IMG/VR virus record: IMGVR_UViG_3300021962_000032
DNA from: a virus
DNA length: 64,000 bases
Strand: one strand, 5' to 3'
The notes below the pieces were generated by a model that was not told the DNA's origin, ran no database searches, and saw only the letters and a program-made list of their open reading frames with translations. Each line of letters starts with the position of its first letter. The stretch's first letter is position 1. Made by a program: the position numbers and the translations under genes. Below are positions 34 to 31,086 of the stretch, piece by piece.

Positions 34-237
34 TTATTTATTTTTTAAAGATTTTACCCAATTCTTATAATCTTTAGGAACTTTACGAAAATCGACACTT
101 CCTTTCTTTTTGTTTCGGAATCCTAATAGAGGATCAAATCCGGCAGTTGGTCCTTGCGCTGGAGAAGATCCAGTAAATCCACCGCCTCCGACAACCATAT
201 TTTCCTTTATTATGGAAATCATTTTGTCTATCTTCAT
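34..237 (-). CDS. Small late protein carrying a copy of the gp23 N-arm motif (GPxAGFDP) and a basic C-terminus
   Basis: 67-aa ORF overlapping the upstream stop (ATGA); residues 16-38 match gp23 residues 73-95 at 14/23 identity. Confidence 0.75.
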   Translation of the reverse strand: MKIDKMISIIKENMVVGGGGFTGSSPAQGPTAGFDPLLGFRNKKKGSVDFRKVPKDYKNWVKSLKNK

Positions 238-614
238 GATTCTCCCAATCTAATTAGTTCTCCCATTATATTTTCATCTACAGGAATGTCATGAATATAG
301 CATCTTGGAGTTGGTGGCAATCTATTCATAAACACTATGAATGTTTTTATGCAACTCCAAAGTTCCTTTTCTGATTTAAAGAAAAACATTGGAGTTGCAG
401 CTTCTCCAAAAATATTATATAAAATTATAAAATGATTGATGAGTAGATTGCATCGTAATTCCCCAGTATTTTTATATCTTTTTAAGAGACGTTTAATATA
501 CTTGAAATGATTCAAATCTTTATAAAAATCCTCTTCAGTAACTGCTTGAGGGTTTTCATAATTTTTGATGGCAAAAATTAAAAAATTACTTTCATCTAAC
601 TCATCAAATAACAT
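234..614 (-). CDS. Conserved T4-like phage hypothetical protein
   Basis: 126 aa; 'FDELDESNFLIFAIKNYENPQ...DLNHFKYIKRLLKRY...LINHFIILYNIFG' is a family I recognise from T4-like cyanophages. Confidence 0.8.
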   Translation of the reverse strand: MLFDELDESNFLIFAIKNYENPQAVTEEDFYKDLNHFKYIKRLLKRYKNTGELRCNLLINHFIILYNIFGEAATPMFFFKSEKELWSCIKTFIVFMNRLPPTPRCYIHDIPVDENIMGELIRLGES

Positions 615-631
615 ATTATTATATTATACTA

Positions 632-1417
632 TTATACAAATGGATTTCCGTCATAAAGTGGAGCATTTCCGGTTTGAATTCCAGACATTGCTACTAATAC
701 TTCCTTTTTAACTCTCAATTCTCCATGGCAATCTACATAAGTCGTTACACCAACCCATCCAGCATGAGTTAACTCATACTTAGTTGCGTGTGCTGCGGTA
801 ACTCCAGCTCCAGCAACACCATAAACATCTCTACTATACCCACCAACATATCTCTTAAATGTAAGAGTTGCTCCTGTAGCAATGCCAACAGAAATTGTTG
901 ATGCAAGTCCGACATTTGTAGCACTAATGGAAGCAATACGAATATCATTTCCACCATTCAATAAAGTATCACCAACAACAATGTCTTTACCTGTTGTTAC
1001 CGTATAAACAGTGCTGTAACCAACAGGAGAGTTAGTTGTTGCAGTTCCAGTAACTCCAAAATTAGTTAAAGTTGGAGCAGAATCAAGAGCATTACTAAAA
1101 CTATAATCACCAACAGTATATTTTGGAAGTTCGCTGATTGTAAAGTTAGCTCCAGCAATAGCAGCACCACTCAATCCAGAAGTTGATGCAATAGAAATCT
1201 GTTGTGTTGAAGCAATAGATACGATTACAGCATCTCCAATATATGTACTATCACCTCTTCCAATTCTAATTACATCGCCAGTTTTTGCAGACCCAACTTG
1301 CCCAAAAAGAGTGCCCCATCCATTTACAACAACATTTCCATATACATCTGTTGTAACATAGTCGCAGGTTACAATACCTGCTGATGATACATTGTCATTA
1401 TTTCCCCAGAGTGCCAT
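632..1417 (-). CDS. Virion structural protein (MALWG family)
   Basis: 261 aa; MALWG N-terminus, C-terminal 'HAGWVG...RVKKEVLVAMS', G/T/S-rich beta composition; late promoter upstream. Confidence 0.7.
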   Translation of the reverse strand: MALWGNNDNVSSAGIVTCDYVTTDVYGNVVVNGWGTLFGQVGSAKTGDVIRIGRGDSTYIGDAVIVSIASTQQISIASTSGLSGAAIAGANFTISELPKYTVGDYSFSNALDSAPTLTNFGVTGTATTNSPVGYSTVYTVTTGKDIVVGDTLLNGGNDIRIASISATNVGLASTISVGIATGATLTFKRYVGGYSRDVYGVAGAGVTAAHATKYELTHAGWVGVTTYVDCHGELRVKKEVLVAMSGIQTGNAPLYDGNPFV

Positions 1418-1451: not shown

Positions 1452-1459
1452 TATTTATA
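1452..1459 (-). promoter_or_regulatory. T4-type late promoter TATAAATA
   Basis: Exact consensus about 35 nt upstream of the ATG at 1417. Confidence 0.8.
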
Positions 1460-1760: not shown

Positions 1761-4532
1761 TTATCTTAAACGAGGGTTTCTTTCTCTAGCACTTAAAGAT
1801 GGATGATCATCTAAACGACTTCTTCTTGGTGGATTTTCATCATCATACTCATCTTTCGATCTCGTTGCACCCTTATGAAGTCCAGTATCTCCGGGTGCTT
1901 TTTGTCTTTCCAAAGTAGCATCTTTTCTCAGTAGTTGAGCACTACCAAGATCACTTGCCTGAACTTCTTTTTTGGATCTGGTGCGGGTCAAACCTCCCCT
2001 TTGTGCCTCTCTTTTTTCAATTGCTCTTGCTGCCCATCCAAGTTTTGTTTCATCAATAGAATCACCTTCCATTTCGTAAGAAGATGTATCAAGTGGCAAT
2101 TTACCTTGCTTTACAAGATTCAATTCTAAATTTTGAGTTTGAGTTTTTTTGTTAACTAATTTTTTTTTTAATTCTGCTTGCTTTTTGGCAACAGGATCAA
2201 CTTCTTCATTTTTTGCCTTCCAGGCAGTGGCATATGCAATGGATTTTTCTTTATCACTCAAACCACCTTTTTTAGCATAGTTTTTTTTAATATGCTTTAC
2301 CATTCTTTCAAACTTTGCTCCTGGAGGTGCTTTTTCCTCAAGATCAACTTCTTCAGATTTCACACACTTATCTTTTCCATTTTTAGTTCCAGCATACTTA
2401 TATCCTTTCCAACAAGCTTTACCATCAGCACCTTGCTCTTTACCCTCTTTATTCTTTGCTTCATTGAGGAACATTTCCTCTACCATAAAGTTTGATTCAA
2501 ATACTAAGAAAGCAACATTTTCATCAAGATTAACTTCTTCAAGTAGTGCTTCCATCCACTCTTCAAATTCTTCTCTCTTATATGCTCTTGGACTTGATGC
2601 AGCACTTCCTCCCTTTGCCCATGCTTTATCAGTTTCTGGATTTCCAGACCATGGATCTCTTTCTGGAGTGTTTGGTTTTTTAATTGGAGTAGATGGTTTC
2701 TTTCTTTGTGGAGTATAAGGTGAATCTCCCGACTTCCCACTTGCCATTGCAGCACGATGGGCATCCATTCTCTGCTTAGCAAGTTGCTGTCTTTCAGATG
2801 GTTTTGGAGTAAGAAGTCCTCTCAAGGCACTTCCAATTCCTTCATCAAGATCTTCTGGAAGGTATGTGTCAATTAAATACCCCTCAGGATATTCGGATAC
2901 ATCATAACCTTCAGAAATTAATTCATTAATCCAAAGATCATAATCTTCTCTCATTTTCTTAATAAATGTTCCTGCAGCACGACCTGCCGCAGCAGCATTA
3001 CTCTTTCCAGCAACTTTAGAACCAATTCCTGCTCCCGCTGCTGCTACAGTTGCTTTAGCAGTTTTAGCAATTCCTGCCTTTACTTTTTGTCCAGCTTCAC
3101 TCTTACCAAACTCCTGACCAGCACGATGAACTGCTTTTGCAGCACCCACAGCAGCACCAGCGGCAGTTCCAGCAGCTCTTGCCACTCTTCTTTCATGCTC
3201 CTTCCCAACTTCCCTTGCAGTTTGCCATGACTGCTTCAGATGTCCAATAATACCCTTCTTAACTTCTTTCTTAGTTCCTTCTGAGGACTTATTGGATGCT
3301 GGTGCTTGTGATGATTTTGCGTTTTCAATACTCTTTTCAGTTTTTGCTTTTTTCAATCCAGAAGAAACCTTTGCTTTCTCAGATTGACTCTTAAGTGCTG
3401 CAGTCATTCCAGATGGTTTTGCAGCAGATGCAGATGATTCTGCTTCTCTTCTTTTTTCCTTTTCACCACGAAGACGCTTAATTGCTGCAGTTTTTGCACC
3501 ACCTTTTAATGATCCAACATCCTTTCCAGATTTTGTAGTTGGTTCAATACGTCCACTTCTTCTTGCTTCATCAAGATCAAGAATATAATCAACAAACTCA
3601 TCTACACCAATATCTTCGATGAGAATATTGATTCCATTTTCATTCAAACCTTCAGCATAAAAATATTCTGTTGCAAAATCAGCAACTTCTTCAATATAAT
3701 TTTCACCAAGATCTACAGATTCTACAAGTTCTCCACCAAGAGCATATGCAACTTCTTCCGAGTTTATTTCTGGATTTACATTTACTTTTTTATCTTTATA
3801 ATTATCAACTGATTTTTCTTTTATTTCTTTTTGCTGAATATCATTAATTTTTTCAACTACTTCACGAATTTCTTCTCTCCATGAAGAGAACGATTCTTTT
3901 TTAGTTCCTTTTTTAGACATTGCTTTTTTAACAGCATTGTCTTTTACTCCAGCATACTCATGACCATCTGGCTCTACAGTGCCATCCCTATCCTTATCAC
4001 CTACAGTATTTTTACCAGTTGCTGGACCATATTTTTTTTCATACTTTTCACCAGCACCGTCATAAGGACTTCCATGCTTAGTTACAGTAGTCACAATCCC
4101 CTTGTTCTGCAAACTATGTCTCTTTTTACGATCTTTTTCACTTGAAGGATCAAACTTCTTAACGTATGGCTTTTCTCCAGTTTTTCTACTTCTTGGATCA
4201 ACTCTCAAATAATGCTTTCCTGCGTCTGCTTCTTCTTTTACAGGTCCACCAGAAGCACCAAGACCCAGTTTCTCTCTGACTGCTGCCTTCTCATTAGCAG
4301 GCATCGAAGTATGAGACATGTACTGAGAATATGCCTGATCTACACCAATTTCTTCTCTTCTTGCACGATATCTAATATCATAAACAGCCTGCCTAATTCT
4401 CTTGGCAGATTGATCACCCAATGCCGGTGCTCCACCTTTTGCTTCACCACCACCATCTTCTTTTTTTCCTAATTGAGGTTCCATCTCGGTGAGATAGGAC
4501 TCATAAAGATCTTGTGCGATATGGGATAACAT
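1761..4532 (-). CDS. Large modular virion or internal head protein (alternating basic modules and acidic linkers)
   Basis: 923 aa; motifs RIRQAVYDIRYRARRE, ESFSSWRE, CWKGY, IAYATAWK; many [ILV]-x-E linkers; late promoter upstream. Confidence 0.65.
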   Translation of the reverse strand: MLSHIAQDLYESYLTEMEPQLGKKEDGGGEAKGGAPALGDQSAKRIRQAVYDIRYRARREEIGVDQAYSQYMSHTSMPANEKAAVREKLGLGASGGPVKEEADAGKHYLRVDPRSRKTGEKPYVKKFDPSSEKDRKKRHSLQNKGIVTTVTKHGSPYDGAGEKYEKKYGPATGKNTVGDKDRDGTVEPDGHEYAGVKDNAVKKAMSKKGTKKESFSSWREEIREVVEKINDIQQKEIKEKSVDNYKDKKVNVNPEINSEEVAYALGGELVESVDLGENYIEEVADFATEYFYAEGLNENGINILIEDIGVDEFVDYILDLDEARRSGRIEPTTKSGKDVGSLKGGAKTAAIKRLRGEKEKRREAESSASAAKPSGMTAALKSQSEKAKVSSGLKKAKTEKSIENAKSSQAPASNKSSEGTKKEVKKGIIGHLKQSWQTAREVGKEHERRVARAAGTAAGAAVGAAKAVHRAGQEFGKSEAGQKVKAGIAKTAKATVAAAGAGIGSKVAGKSNAAAAGRAAGTFIKKMREDYDLWINELISEGYDVSEYPEGYLIDTYLPEDLDEGIGSALRGLLTPKPSERQQLAKQRMDAHRAAMASGKSGDSPYTPQRKKPSTPIKKPNTPERDPWSGNPETDKAWAKGGSAASSPRAYKREEFEEWMEALLEEVNLDENVAFLVFESNFMVEEMFLNEAKNKEGKEQGADGKACWKGYKYAGTKNGKDKCVKSEEVDLEEKAPPGAKFERMVKHIKKNYAKKGGLSDKEKSIAYATAWKAKNEEVDPVAKKQAELKKKLVNKKTQTQNLELNLVKQGKLPLDTSSYEMEGDSIDETKLGWAARAIEKREAQRGGLTRTRSKKEVQASDLGSAQLLRKDATLERQKAPGDTGLHKGATRSKDEYDDENPPRRSRLDDHPSLSARERNPRLR

Positions 4533-4560
4533 GTTATTTTTTAATTATTTTCCTTGTATT

Positions 4561-4568
4561 TATTTATA
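4561..4568 (-). promoter_or_regulatory. T4-type late promoter TATAAATA
   Basis: Exact consensus upstream of the ATG at 4532. Confidence 0.8.
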
Positions 4569-4579
4569 AAATATTCAAA

Positions 4580-6130
4580 TTAATCTTCAATGAACGTAAT
4601 TCCAGAATCTACTCTGGTCAATTGAGAAGAAGAACTAATTGCCATTGCAAGTCGTACAGTTGGTGGTAATGCGATTCTTAAATCAGAAATATCAATAGTA
4701 ATTGGAGATCCAGAAGTTACACTAAACACAGCAATTGGTGTTCCCGTAAGTGTAGTATCCGTAACTGCATAAGATGACGCATTCCCAACTGACAGAAAAC
4801 TGGGAGTTGCTCCATTATAAGTTGGATTTATGTACAAATAAACTAAGCAAGGAGCAGATCCAGAAGAAACTGCACCACAAGTAATTTTTTTAGGTATAAT
4901 TTCTCTTGAATTGATCTTATTACTTGCTGCAAGATTTCCCTTAATTGTGAGCAGATGTGTAATAGTATTTGCAGATATATTTGTAGTTCTTGAACTATAT
5001 ACAGCAACTGGATAATCAATTGGTGAAATAAGTCCTTCAATAGCACCCAACATTGATGCTCCGCAAATAGTCACCCCTGCGCCAACATTTCCATTCAATT
5101 CAGCAGCAACATATCCAAGTTTTAATGATGGATTATCCAAATGAACATTATCATTTTGATTACTATAATGTTCATGGTGAATAAAAATCATATCTCCGTT
5201 AATTGGATTTTCCATAGCATAACGTATTTCACCAGCGCCCAACCAACGAAAATTAATTTGAAATACATTTAATTTTTGTGGATTGAGAGTAACTAAGGAT
5301 GGATTAGTAGTTCCGCCAACACCAGTCAAAGTATCAAGATTCCAATCTTCCTGATAAGTCCAATTTTCAGTTTGTATAACACCAACTTGAGCCGTTGATC
5401 CAGTTGATACAAGAGTCCCAGAACTTGTGATTGAAAATGATCCCGTTTTTGGTCCCAAACTATTGGCAAGAAATGTAATTATATTGTCTCTATAATCTGC
5501 TGTCCACCCAGAAAATGTACGGGATCCGATAGCAGCAGCATTTTCGGCAGTTGTCCCAGCACCAATACTAAAAGTAGTTGATAATCCAGCAAGAGTAACT
5601 GTTATTGTTTCAGTTCCACTCGATGCAGTATTAACAGTAAATTTATGAATGTGTGCCTTTCCACCATTTGCACGAAGGATTCCAAACTTTCCATTTGTAT
5701 TATACCCAACTTGAAGTGCCTGTTCTTGAGTAAAGAACCCTGCTCTTTGTGTATAACCAGTTCTTCCTTCATCAAATTTTGCGGTAAATCTTGCAAGAGC
5801 ACCTTGACCTGGACGATATCTTACAGATCTTTTAGAACGAACAACTCCATATCCATAAGCACCAGTTCCTGTTGATGCTTGAATTAAAATATTAGATGTG
5901 GTAATTCCAGTTCCAAAAGAATACGTTTCAATCTTATTTGGATCCAATCCATAAAGACCATCCAATTGAACAACTGGAGTTGGTGTAACCGTAAGTACTT
6001 CACCAAAAGCACTTCTAGAAGATGCACCATCATTTAAAATATTTCCGTATTGATCTGCACGAATATAAACCTCATGGATAGTCCTCTCTTGATTGAGGTA
6101 ATCCTGATTATTCTTATGCCACTGTGCCAT
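4580..6130 (-). CDS. Virion structural protein, beta-rich (lectin-like fold possible)
   Basis: 516 aa; 'MAQW...AFGE...YRPGQG...INFRWLGAGEIR' pattern, T/S/G-rich. Confidence 0.6.
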   Translation of the reverse strand: MAQWHKNNQDYLNQERTIHEVYIRADQYGNILNDGASSRSAFGEVLTVTPTPVVQLDGLYGLDPNKIETYSFGTGITTSNILIQASTGTGAYGYGVVRSKRSVRYRPGQGALARFTAKFDEGRTGYTQRAGFFTQEQALQVGYNTNGKFGILRANGGKAHIHKFTVNTASSGTETITVTLAGLSTTFSIGAGTTAENAAAIGSRTFSGWTADYRDNIITFLANSLGPKTGSFSITSSGTLVSTGSTAQVGVIQTENWTYQEDWNLDTLTGVGGTTNPSLVTLNPQKLNVFQINFRWLGAGEIRYAMENPINGDMIFIHHEHYSNQNDNVHLDNPSLKLGYVAAELNGNVGAGVTICGASMLGAIEGLISPIDYPVAVYSSRTTNISANTITHLLTIKGNLAASNKINSREIIPKKITCGAVSSGSAPCLVYLYINPTYNGATPSFLSVGNASSYAVTDTTLTGTPIAVFSVTSGSPITIDISDLRIALPPTVRLAMAISSSSQLTRVDSGITFIED

Positions 6131-6133
6131 AAC

Positions 6134-6451
6134 TTATAACCACTCTAATTTTCCTGGATGATATCTCTTGGTACTTGAAATGTTTACGTCTGTTTTTTGA
6201 ATTGCTGGATAAATCTGATGAACAATTGCTCCAGGATATTCGGTCTGTAATCTTTCTGCCAAATCCAATTTAGATGGCATTCCATTTGACACCAACTCTA
6301 ATCTATAAATGCTTCCTTCCCAAACAAAGTCAGCAACGTATTCTTCACCAACAGATCTTGTTTCAGGTTCAGAATTGTTGATATAGAGATTTCCATTAAA
6401 ATCTCCAGCAATATTTACAGCTTCAGAAATAAATTGCTGATAGGATTTCAT
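6134..6451 (-). CDS. Putative internal head protein with a T4-like capsid-targeting sequence
   Basis: N-terminus MKSYQQFISE resembles the T4 internal-protein leader MKTYQEFIAE; ATAAATA at 6480-6486 upstream. Confidence 0.65.
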   Translation of the reverse strand: MKSYQQFISEAVNIAGDFNGNLYINNSEPETRSVGEEYVADFVWEGSIYRLELVSNGMPSKLDLAERLQTEYPGAIVHQIYPAIQKTDVNISSTKRYHPGKLEWL

Positions 6452-7038
6452 TTGTTATCTGCCTTCTTTGCTTTGTACTTATTTATGAAATTTCTAATAT
6501 TCTTTACACCAACCAATCCCATTACATATTCTCTATATAAATCCGTTCCAACTAATCTTTGATCTGCAGGAACACCAGAAACTTTAGTCCACTCTACAAC
6601 ATCATGAATCCAAGGTTTGAACATTCGATCATCTTCCGTGACGCAAATTAAATAATTTGTACCTCTACGAATAATTTTTCCAATCATTCCATTTGATGTA
6701 CTTTCAATCCAATCACCTTCCAAAAATATTTCCTTTGCAATATATCTTTCTCTTATTTCTTTAATATAGGATTCAGTTTTAAGAGGATTATTTGGTTTAT
6801 GGTCAGAAGCAACATCATTAGGATTACGAGTTCCTCGTACTTGTTTTGGATCCTTCTTTCCTAATTGCTGCCCCTGATTATAAAACTTTAAATTTCCACC
6901 GTTTGTTTTTGCTACAAATTCTCCAGATTTTTTTCCATACCACCCACCATGTCCATCACCTACTAAATCCAATCGCTTTGCGTGGAATTTTGCAAGTGAG
7001 AACTTTGCTTCTGTTTGAAAATTAGAGAATTTTTTCAT
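6448..7038 (-). CDS. Homolog of the cyanophage 'cytidylyltransferase' virion protein, lacking the central catalytic domain
   Basis: N-terminal MKKFSNFQTE / GDGHGGWY..GEFVAKT and C-terminal GKIIRRGTNYLICVTED..MFKPWI are present; no HxGH nucleotidyltransferase motif; only 196 aa. Confidence 0.55.
   Translation of the reverse strand: MKKFSNFQTEAKFSLAKFHAKRLDLVGDGHGGWYGKKSGEFVAKTNGGNLKFYNQGQQLGKKDPKQVRGTRNPNDVASDHKPNNPLKTESYIKEIRERYIAKEIFLEGDWIESTSNGMIGKIIRRGTNYLICVTEDDRMFKPWIHDVVEWTKVSGVPADQRLVGTDLYREYVMGLVGVKNIRNFINKYKAKKADNK
6480..6486 (-). promoter_or_regulatory. Late promoter ATAAATA inside the 3' end of the upstream gene
   Basis: Motif about 30 nt upstream of the ATG at 6451. Confidence 0.55.
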
Positions 7039-27624: not shown

Positions 27625-29082
27625 TCACATGAGGTTCTTAACAGCAACTCTTCTGTAGTAACGGTTGCTGTTTGTAAGAATACGTCCAAGACCCTGGCCT
27701 GTGCCTTCTGCGAATGGGTTTGCAACCATTCCATAACGGGTCTTAAAGCCGATCTTAGGCTGGAAAGTATTCTCTCCAACTGCACGTACCATCTGGAGAG
27801 GTACATATGGGCAGTAGAAAAGTCCTGCGTCATAAGGTGAAGAACCCTTATATCCAATAACATAGTATTGGGTTGCAGCATTATTTGCCGAATAAGGATC
27901 GATATAAACGCGGAATTTGCCCATCAGAACACCAGCAAAGGTGTTACCAGTGTCATCAACGTTCAGGTTTGCGTTGAGTGCTGGGGTGTAGTCAAGTACT
28001 CCTGCCATGGTCAGTGCCGAAGCAACGTCAGCAGAGCACATGATTACGTTGCCCTTTCCTCTACGAGTTCTTTGTGCAATCTGGTTCGCATCTCTTTCGA
28101 TTTGGAACAGAAGACCCTTGAACTTCTCAACTGACCAACGACCGTTGGAGTCAACGTCGAGGTCGAATACACCAGGAGTTGCAACGTTGAGGGTTGCACC
28201 CTGCTCAGCAACCTTGTAGATGGTTCTGATGACTTCACGGTTGATTTCAGCAAGAATCTCTGTTGAGAGAATGTTTGCTAATTCCGCTTCAGCATTCAGA
28301 CCATGGATTGCCTTCAGGTCTTGTGCAAGCTCAAGGCTGTATTCTGCCTTCAGTGCTCTTGACTTGGCTTCAACAAGAACCTTCTCGATTGAGAATGCCA
28401 TCTCGTTGAACTGATCGCCACTTCCAAGTGCCTCAGAAGTTGCGGTGTCCATTGCCTGACCAACTTTATAGTCAAGCTCACTTGCTGTTGCAGTTGGGTT
28501 CAGGAGACCTGGGTTATTTTGTGATCCACCAGCTGCGGGAGGAGCATCGGCAGTAGTACCCATACCAACAGAAGCACCGGATCCTGCTTCTCTGGTGTAC
28601 TGTCCAAGAGGACCATTGAATCCAGAATCTTGTCCGGAGAAAGATGTATCTGGCTCATTGAACAGAGCTTCTGCACCGTTCTGGTCATTGTAACGTGATC
28701 TCATTGCGAAGATGAGTCCTGTTGGTCCGTTCATTGGTTGAACGCCAGCAAGATCATATGCAACAAGGTTTGGCATTGAACGTCTGATCAATGAGATCAG
28801 TACGGGATCAAAACCTGCTACTGGACCTGCAGAATCTGCAGCTCCACCGAATCCAGGACCACCAACTCCATTACCACCTACGGCGCCGGAATTTGTATTT
28901 ACGGTTGGAGTTTCGGTGAGAAGACCACCAGCATTAAATGCTGATTGCTCTCTTAAAAACTTTTCTTGATTTTCTAACAGGACTGCGGTTACGGCTCTTC
29001 TGTGGGAATCATTGATTGGATCGCATCCTTCGTGATTCAGAAGAGGTGCCCACTTTTCCTGCAATCTTTCTGATTGAAACAT
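27625..29082 (-). CDS. gp23: Major capsid protein gp23
   Basis: KWAPLL, AGFDPVLISLIRR.MPNL.AYD..GVQPM, EINREV, FQPKIGFKTRYG. Confidence 0.99.
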   Translation of the reverse strand: MFQSERLQEKWAPLLNHEGCDPINDSHRRAVTAVLLENQEKFLREQSAFNAGGLLTETPTVNTNSGAVGGNGVGGPGFGGAADSAGPVAGFDPVLISLIRRSMPNLVAYDLAGVQPMNGPTGLIFAMRSRYNDQNGAEALFNEPDTSFSGQDSGFNGPLGQYTREAGSGASVGMGTTADAPPAAGGSQNNPGLLNPTATASELDYKVGQAMDTATSEALGSGDQFNEMAFSIEKVLVEAKSRALKAEYSLELAQDLKAIHGLNAEAELANILSTEILAEINREVIRTIYKVAEQGATLNVATPGVFDLDVDSNGRWSVEKFKGLLFQIERDANQIAQRTRRGKGNVIMCSADVASALTMAGVLDYTPALNANLNVDDTGNTFAGVLMGKFRVYIDPYSANNAATQYYVIGYKGSSPYDAGLFYCPYVPLQMVRAVGENTFQPKIGFKTRYGMVANPFAEGTGQGLGRILTNSNRYYRRVAVKNLM

Positions 29083-30441: not shown

Positions 30442-31086
30442 TTACAACGAATTTAAAAACTCGTTGAAAAGATTAAGTTTATGCTCTTCAAGAGCACGTT
30501 GACTTACAAATCTTTCGACTTTGGATTGTAAAATGTGAACTTTTTGTTCTAAAACGCCATTATTCCAAATCCATTCAACACCTTCCATGATCCCGTTTAC
30601 GAATGCATCGGGAGCTGAAGGATCTGCAACAATATCTGCTGCAGTTGCTAACATAAAGTCATCATTAACAACTTTTACTCCATTTCTTTCGACGAGAGAA
30701 CCAACTCCTCTTGAAGAAACCCCGAGTTTTACACCTTCACCAATGAGTGATGATGCAATTTTTCCCATTGGAGTATCAAGAATTTTTGCTTTTCCTACAA
30801 AATTATTTCCATCTTCTTTTAAAGATGTAATCATATGTGAAACCCTATCCAGGTTTACTGTTGGACCATCTGGATGTCCGAGTTCACCAAGAGCTCGTCC
30901 TTTTTGAATATAATTTTCATTGTATCTTTGTACTTCTCTTTGCAGAGTTTCCATTGGATACATACGACCATTACGGTTCTTTATATTAGCTTGAAGAAAA
31001 GTCCCTTCAATATGAAGAGATTTTTTGCCATCCTTACCTTCAGTAATAAAATTTACTGATTCTATTTCTTCTGTGATTAGTTTCAT
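30442..31086 (-). CDS. gp21: Prohead protease gp21
   Basis: MKLITE, NRNGRMYP, GELGHP, GVSSRG.GS, DIVADPSAPDAFV. Confidence 0.97.
   Translation of the reverse strand: MKLITEEIESVNFITEGKDGKKSLHIEGTFLQANIKNRNGRMYPMETLQREVQRYNENYIQKGRALGELGHPDGPTVNLDRVSHMITSLKEDGNNFVGKAKILDTPMGKIASSLIGEGVKLGVSSRGVGSLVERNGVKVVNDDFMLATAADIVADPSAPDAFVNGIMEGVEWIWNNGVLEQKVHILQSKVERFVSQRALEEHKLNLFNEFLNSL

Follow-up and report, generated by a model that had tools for sequence, protein, structure and literature searches.

The window analysed here is a stretch of 64,000 nt, given as a single strand, from the IMG/VR virus record IMGVR_UViG_3300021962_000032. It covers the structural region of a T4-like cyanophage: the large genes all lie on the minus strand, and those for the portal, the protease gp21, the scaffold gp22 and the major capsid protein gp23 are recognisable. 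At 34..237 on the minus strand lies a small gene, a real open reading frame of 67 aa, whose product is composed of a leader, a mimic of the gp23 N-terminus and a basic tail. The leader (residues 1-12; 202..237, minus strand) ends in I-K-E, a site of the gp21 type ([LIVMF]-x-E) at which cleavage is predicted, and its amino acids are conserved across the homologues of the protein. The tail (residues 39-67; 37..123, minus strand) carries 11 Lys/Arg and 2 Asp/Glu in its 29 residues, as anticipated by the preliminary description, which had noted a Lys/Arg-rich end; the putative mature peptide has a pI of 10.4. Within this tail, the positions of D-F-R-x-V-P and Y-K-x-W are nearly invariant in our alignment of metagenomic homologues (alignment A1). 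No Pfam family matches the small protein, T4 gp61.1 or the long form of the family discussed below.

The gene order in the contig is DUF7207, small gene, DUF7201 (152 aa), primase (322 aa) and nrdA. The ATG of the small gene (237-235) overlaps the TGA (236-234) of the upstream DUF7207 gene (234..614, minus strand; phrog_407) as ATGA, an arrangement that suggests translational coupling of the two. The nearest upstream T4-type late promoter box, TATAAATA, lies at 1452..1459 (minus strand) before the gene 632..1417. The total count of such boxes in the window is not above the shuffle expectation; their strand bias is strong, since 11 of the 12 are on the minus, coding strand, where most of them closely precede a structural gene. 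No terminator-like site was found on the minus strand between 1417 and 34, and the small gene would thus be co-transcribed from the late box at 1452..1459. A sigma-70-like promoter match (11/12; 265..292, minus strand) is located inside the DUF7207 gene, about 28 nt before the ATG of the small gene. Early transcription from it could cover the small gene as well as the replication genes that follow. Since shuffled sequence yields as many such matches in total for this region, we treat this one as a lead.

The mimic segment of the small protein (residues 16-38; 124..192, minus strand) aligns with residues 73-95 of gp23 (28798..28866, minus strand), a protein of 485 aa encoded at 27625..29082 on the minus strand (phrog_138, E 8.5e-168). 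As first read from the sequence, 14 of the 23 residues are identical and the alignment has no gaps. The Smith-Waterman score of the small protein against gp23 is 78, while 5,000 whole-protein shuffles of the small protein reach at most 54. The glycine-rich composition of the motif was addressed by shuffling the 23 residues alone: in 20,000 trials against the gp23 arm the maximum score was 58, and the best ungapped identity count was 11. The real score lies beyond all shuffles, so low complexity does not explain the match. With composition correction, BLASTP of the core of the small protein against gp23 gives E = 6e-4. The motif occurs at just two sites in the 91-kb contig, the small gene and gp23; gp23 matches only itself and the small gene there, and no gp24-like paralogue of gp23 was found in this contig, which is about 48% complete.

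T4 gp23 and the gp23 of the window share the same numbering around Arg100-Arg101 and Pro104-Asn105-Leu106. The copied segment is thus the counterpart of the T4 N-fist (gp23* 66-91) and of the beginning of the N-arm, at about T4 residues 73-95 in the structures PDB 5VF3, 7VS5 and 6UZC. In the window protein this fist and arm segment is free-standing, whereas in T4 gp23* it carries an HK97-fold body; that body (PF07068; P domain, A domain, E-loop) is absent from the 67-aa small protein, whose likeness to gp23 is confined to residues 73-95. Beyond gp23 residue 95 the next residues differ, and further on Lys43-Lys44 of the small protein sit, without gaps and as read by eye from the sequences, opposite Arg100-Arg101 of gp23. 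The predicted maturation cleavage site of gp23 is LLTE at residues 53-56 (28915..28926, minus strand), opposite T4 FLTE at Glu65; in all 26 cyanophages gp23 has [LIMF]-x-E there, with A or T as the next residue. By analogy with T4, the gp23 of the window would be cleaved at LLTE, presumably by the prohead protease gp21 encoded at 30442..31086 (minus strand; phrog_207, E 1e-85). A gp21-type site had been proposed to precede the motif in both proteins. Both sites are present, IIKE at residues 9-12 of the small protein and LLTE in gp23, but their spacing to the motif differs, at 3 and 16 residues, respectively.

In the unexpanded T4 prohead, the residues of gp23 that precede Leu106 are disordered and point towards the core. 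Upon expansion the N-terminal segment of gp23* is externalised, touches four subunits and contributes to the Soc site, and the N-fist segment is disordered in the five portal-facing subunits. Variability across 40 cyanophage gp23 sequences peaks in residues 57-89, with a majority-residue fraction of 0.43-0.54 compared to 0.83 for residues 107-485, and residues 90-106 are almost invariant.

This variability bears on one alternative, in which the small protein is a cytoplasmic decoy: it would mimic the exposed N-terminal segment of gp23 and soak up a host sensor or protease, and would play no part in the head itself. A contested surface would be expected to vary, and no part of gp23 varies more than the copied segment. 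On the other hand, the preliminary description had pointed to the Gol region, which we take from the Lit/Gol literature to be approximately gp23 residues 93-122, and what the small protein copies is instead the N-fist and the start of the N-arm, upstream of Gol. A Lit-type decoy is therefore not supported, and we rejected the specific version in which the small protein mimics the peptide that activates Lit.

We then asked how widely the gene is distributed. The small protein matches phrog_696 ('major head protein') with E 3e-12, over the first 43 of 263 profile positions only, and its second PHROG match is phrog_3286. With tblastn, 343 phage records match, all of them cyanophages or marine viruses, and a profile built from 26 metagenomic homologues retrieves 159 representative clusters (50% identity) at E<=1e-3. 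Leader, mimic and tail are all conserved in these 26 homologues. A word-index search for longer relatives gave none, and a mixed alignment yielded no conserved stretch usable for a locus search.

Among 24 cyanophage isolates whose neighbourhoods were read, the best match lies between DUF7207 and a DUF7201-type gene or primase gene 61 in 22, namely S-SCSM1, S-ShM2 and 20 further cyanophages with the order seen in the contig; the DUF7201-type gene is missing from a few of the 24 neighbourhoods. The two exceptions are S-T4, in which the DUF7207 gene is not annotated, and S-CREM1, in which the best match is gp23 itself. The annotation of the gene itself varies. In P-RSM1 a homologue is present at about 901-990 of the extracted locus (L105) and is not annotated, and in S-SCSM1 (L001, 3995-4033) and S-T4 (L119, upstream of 937) the gene is annotated from an internal Met, which cuts off the conserved leader. 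The RefSeq cyanophage proteins grouped as T4-GC 426 or phrog_696 and named 'major head protein' are orthologues of the small gene. This name is misleading, as they have about 25-40 residues in common with gp23 and lack the Pfam capsid domain, and each cyanophage genome that carries such an orthologue encodes its true gp23 elsewhere.

Family members from isolates are 60 to 286 aa long, and those from metagenomes reach 401 aa. In every cyanophage member the mimic is located at or near the N-terminus and is followed by a Lys/Arg-rich stretch. What precedes the mimic differs: among 26 cyanophage orthologues, 14 have a leader of 12-26 aa ending in [LIVF]-x-E(E), six begin with a four-residue M-x-x-E start, and the remaining six are leaderless long forms whose first residue lies no more than about 2 positions from where their own gp23* begins. 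The start of these six forms at about this position suggests that the mature N-terminus is the conserved feature. One long form, P0131, contains a conserved domain of ~75 residues (residues about 50-129), for which a fold of a beta-hairpin, two helices, a strand and a long helix is predicted with a pLDDT of about 90. A Foldseek search of this domain against the PDB gave no match at E <= 0.001, and the domain thus provides no clue to location.

These N-terminal variants are relevant for a second alternative, that the small protein, with its copy of the sequence on either side of the gp23 site, competes as a substrate of the prohead protease or acts as its timer, modulating the timing of the cut. 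In favour of this reading, an x-E(E) site stands immediately before the mimic in 20 of the 26 cyanophages, and in T4, Berthold, 44RR2.8t and AS-zj (see below) the stretch aligned to gp23 runs across the cleavage site in every case. The six cyanophage long forms, however, have no site at all and start at a mature-type N-terminus, which indicates that the cleavage site is not the conserved element. Moreover, a role as timer accounts neither for the basic tail, which is conserved, nor for the long extensions at the C-terminus. We consider it quite unlikely.

To measure whether the mimic follows the capsid protein of its own phage, we paired the small protein with the gp23 N-terminus of the same phage in 26 cyanomyophages. 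The seven long IMG/VR contigs that carry gp23 lack the small gene and added no pairs. Own pairs have a mean score of 87.7, compared to 73.2 +/- 2.0 for permuted pairings, and none of 100,000 permutations reaches 87.7; the test proposed in the preliminary description, whether motif and gp23 N-arm co-vary from phage to phage, is thus positive. In nine phages, the highest-scoring gp23 of the 26 is the phage's own. Lineage-specific strings and a length difference are common to both genes in S-T4, DSL-LC02, P-TIM68, ACG-2014d, P-RSM3, S-MbCM6 and S-B64, so the features shared by a small protein and its own gp23 include an insertion or deletion. In five of the 26 phages (S-SM1, S-RIM2, S-RIM12, P-RSM1 and P-SSM7) the motif type is mismatched with the own gp23. 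Tracking of the own gp23 is also what a decoy would have to do.

Such a match could in principle be functionless, if repeated gene conversion from g23 kept a short fragment of the small gene alike. The pooled fraction of identical residues encoded by the same codon is slightly raised, at 0.414 for own pairs compared to 0.371 +/- 0.019 for permuted ones (268 of 20,000 permutations reach it), and the identical DNA runs in S-RIM8 (16 nt) and DSL-LC02 (14 nt) exceed the 95th percentile of between-phage pairs. The longest identical run between the small gene and the own g23 nevertheless averages 8 nt, with a maximum of 16. The strongest matches at the protein level, in S-T4, ACG-2014d, S-CRM01 and S-TIM4, have same-codon fractions of 0.22-0.33 and runs of 7-9 nt. 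As these best matches are at or below the between-phage codon baseline of 0.37 and their identical DNA runs are short, the matching is kept at the protein level. Recent gene conversion as the main cause was rejected on the synonymous-site and identical-run tests, and the conservation of frame, N-terminal position and tail from T4 to the cyanophages also argues against a functionless resemblance, which we regard as very improbable. Occasional short gene conversion may have occurred in a few lineages.

A gene of the same design is found in T4. Gene 61.1, directly upstream of primase gene 61, encodes a 54-aa product (NP_049649, 'hypothetical protein', phrog_1823). An ungapped alignment of 37 residues joins this product to T4 gp23 57-93 and spans the Glu65 site; its score of 82 is reached by none of 5,000 shuffles. 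The only PDB matches of the product are gp23 chains (E 0.007). With gp61.1 as query, tblastn retrieves 1,389 phage records, most of them in the 61.1 position and a few with gp23 itself as the best match. A 61.1-type gene adjoins the primase gene in Acinetobacter phage Berthold and in the Aeromonas phages 44RR2.8t and AS-zj, and in all three the product aligns to its own gp23 across the cleavage site. In Berthold (L164) and AS-zj (L166) the gene has an extra domain of ~100 residues before the cleavage-type site, and the mimic peptide would come off the C-terminus of a larger precursor in these phages. In the Straboviridae, what follows the site is a uniform peptide of 41-45 residues without cargo.

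The window protein resembles T4 gp61.1 in several respects. Both are encoded by small genes near primase gene 61 (one gene off here), both have a leader ending in I-x-E followed by a copy of the own gp23 from the site through the N-fist, and in both the mimic is followed by a polybasic run opposite gp23 Arg100-Arg101. On the other hand, the two proteins belong to different PHROGs and have no detectable direct similarity: they score 43 against each other, far below the 78 and 82 against their own gp23. Such divergence would follow if each copy keeps pace with the gp23 of its own phage. Scores of each protein against the gp23 of the other clade are likewise low (37 and 42). Homology to T4 gp61.1 is thus not proven, and the case for it rests on position and architecture and not on detectable sequence similarity. 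There are also differences: T4 gp61.1 has a leader of the type found in the T4 internal proteins, whereas that of the window protein has 12 aa and is of another type; the tail of the window protein is longer and has its own conserved motif; and the DUF7201 gene that sits between the small gene and gene 61 in the window phage and other cyanophages is absent between 61.1 and 61 in T4. The upstream neighbour differs as well, being AdfA in T4 and the unrelated DUF7207 in cyanophages; DUF7207 was not matched in T4-type records, in a search without a positive control. T4 gene 61.2 (4133-4759 of locus L150) encodes this anti-DarT factor AdfA (PF23813, E 1e-135).

We found no paper on the function of gp61.1 or on the cyanophage family. 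The T4 head structure papers examined, including two 2026 portal-neck papers, do not mention gp61.1. Several near-atomic structures of the T4 head and portal vertex exist, yet gp61.1 is not a chain in any PDB entry. Its absence from the deposited head structures makes an ordered, high-occupancy site on the T4 shell unlikely.

The leader of T4 gp61.1 is a capsid-targeting sequence (CTS), nearly letter-for-letter that of the internal proteins IPI, IPII and IPIII. A degenerate pattern for the first 8 codons matches only four sites in the T4 genome, which are the starts of ipI, ipII, ipIII and 61.1. Residues 4 and 7 of the CTS are reported to govern targeting, and residues 8 and 10 processing (PMC9026906). 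T4 gp61.1 retains the CTS residues at all four positions. The window protein resembles the T4 internal proteins in its short putative propeptide ending in [LI]-x-E, its basic mature part and the variable cargo of its relatives, but the internal proteins contain no copy of gp23.

The window contains two further open reading frames whose first ten residues are near-identical to the T4 CTS, end in x-E and are followed by Ala. They encode 105 aa (6134..6451, minus strand) and 196 aa (6448..7038, minus strand), and judged by sequence both are candidates for packaged internal proteins. Given these two near-copies of the T4 CTS, the window phage most likely uses CTS-type loading. The C-terminal part of the longer one matches phrog_395 and phrog_4808. 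The leader of the small protein, 12 residues ending in I-K-E, is unlike the T4-type CTS of these two proteins, and the targeting and cleavage of the small protein are putative. Elsewhere in the window, a gene at 1761..4532 (minus strand) encodes a protein of 923 aa, rich in Lys, Glu and Ala, in which residues 14-16 form an L-T-E site; the gene has its own late promoter box at 4561-4568, and a packaged polyprotein is its likely product. A Cys module (C-W-x-G-Y ... C-V-K) is common to this protein and the long form P0092 (E 5e-5).

With regard to the virion, the closest isolate orthologue of the small protein is SSCSM1_97 (gene 97 of cyanophage S-SCSM1), which is 59% identical and annotated as 'virion protein' in its record. 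According to the S-SCSM1 paper, the virion protein labels come from mass spectrometry of CsCl-purified particles; the product of gene 97 is not listed in the text of the supplement. The record annotation thus indicates that the S-SCSM1 orthologue is present in the virion. A complex prediction for two copies of gp23 96-485 and residues 13-67 of the small protein gave a score of 0.01, which weighs neither way on binding.

These observations also bear on the decoy. In its favour, the T4 neighbour of 61.1 is a counter-defence gene, and at the window locus the sigma-70-like match lies just upstream with replication genes downstream. However, the same locus and design recur across T4-like phages of enterobacteria, Acinetobacter, Aeromonas and marine and freshwater cyanobacteria, while counter-defence genes are usually patchy. 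In addition, a cytoplasmic role does not fit the capsid-targeting sequence of T4 gp61.1 or the listing of the S-SCSM1 orthologue as a virion protein. We therefore consider a decoy unlikely.

Taken together, the observations are that the small protein mimics gp23 and evolves in concert with it, that its gene keeps its locus, and that T4 gp61.1 carries a targeting sequence of the IP type. A design matched to each phage's own capsid protein suggests that the small protein is probably an overlooked minor head protein. Specifically, we propose that it is the cyanophage counterpart of gp61.1, a minor head protein that is targeted to the prohead, trimmed by gp21 and presents a gp23-like N-terminus, and we give this reading a probability of about 0.5. 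The small protein would enter the prohead, where gp21 would trim the leader in those members that have one. Trimming would create a free N-terminus like that of gp23*, consisting of the N-fist and the first N-arm residues, followed by the polybasic stretch. Because it would present the same surface as the gp23* N-terminus, the small protein should engage the partners of that N-terminus, which in T4 are the scaffolding core before expansion and the inter-capsomer sockets of the shell after it. The basic tail would be left free to touch DNA or acidic surfaces. For the window phage, packaging, cleavage and the binding partner are inferred.

The core-binding capacity of this segment might also be its entire purpose. 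In such a scenario, the copied gp23 segment would be a handle for the scaffold, a loading signal for variable cargo with no role in the mature shell. This would agree with the T4 segment before Leu106, disordered and facing the core in the unexpanded head, with the very different C-terminal cargo of the members (60 to 401 aa), and with the long form that has the Cys module of the putative packaged 923-aa protein. However, members with a long leader would then have two loading signals, and the constant after-site product of the Straboviridae has no cargo to load. We find a pure loading handle improbable, though not strongly so.

A more specific version of the minor head protein reading assigns the peptide a place in the mature shell as a surrogate N-fist. 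After the gp21 cut, the peptide would follow the gp23* N-termini on expansion and would dock in sockets that lack a neighbour's fist, around the portal or next to special vertices, with its polybasic tail staying on the DNA or portal side. A leader-trimmed surrogate N-fist in such fist-less sockets would be a co-evolving rivet in all T4-like heads, including that of T4 itself. This extension is speculative, and we hold it to be unlikely as formulated.

The analysis also bears on the annotation of these phages. The label 'major head protein' is wrong in dozens of RefSeq cyanophage records and other relatives are called hypothetical, while some records lose the leader (S-SCSM1, S-T4) or the whole gene (P-RSM1). 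The mimic segment could also serve as a ready-made capsid-addressing tag. T4 head assembly is among the best-studied pathways, yet gene 61.1 has remained without a described function. The occurrence, in phages of enterobacteria as well as in marine ones, of a free-standing gp23 N-terminus matched at the protein level to the own capsid protein implies that its partner is conserved and that head maturation has an unrecognised step or component.
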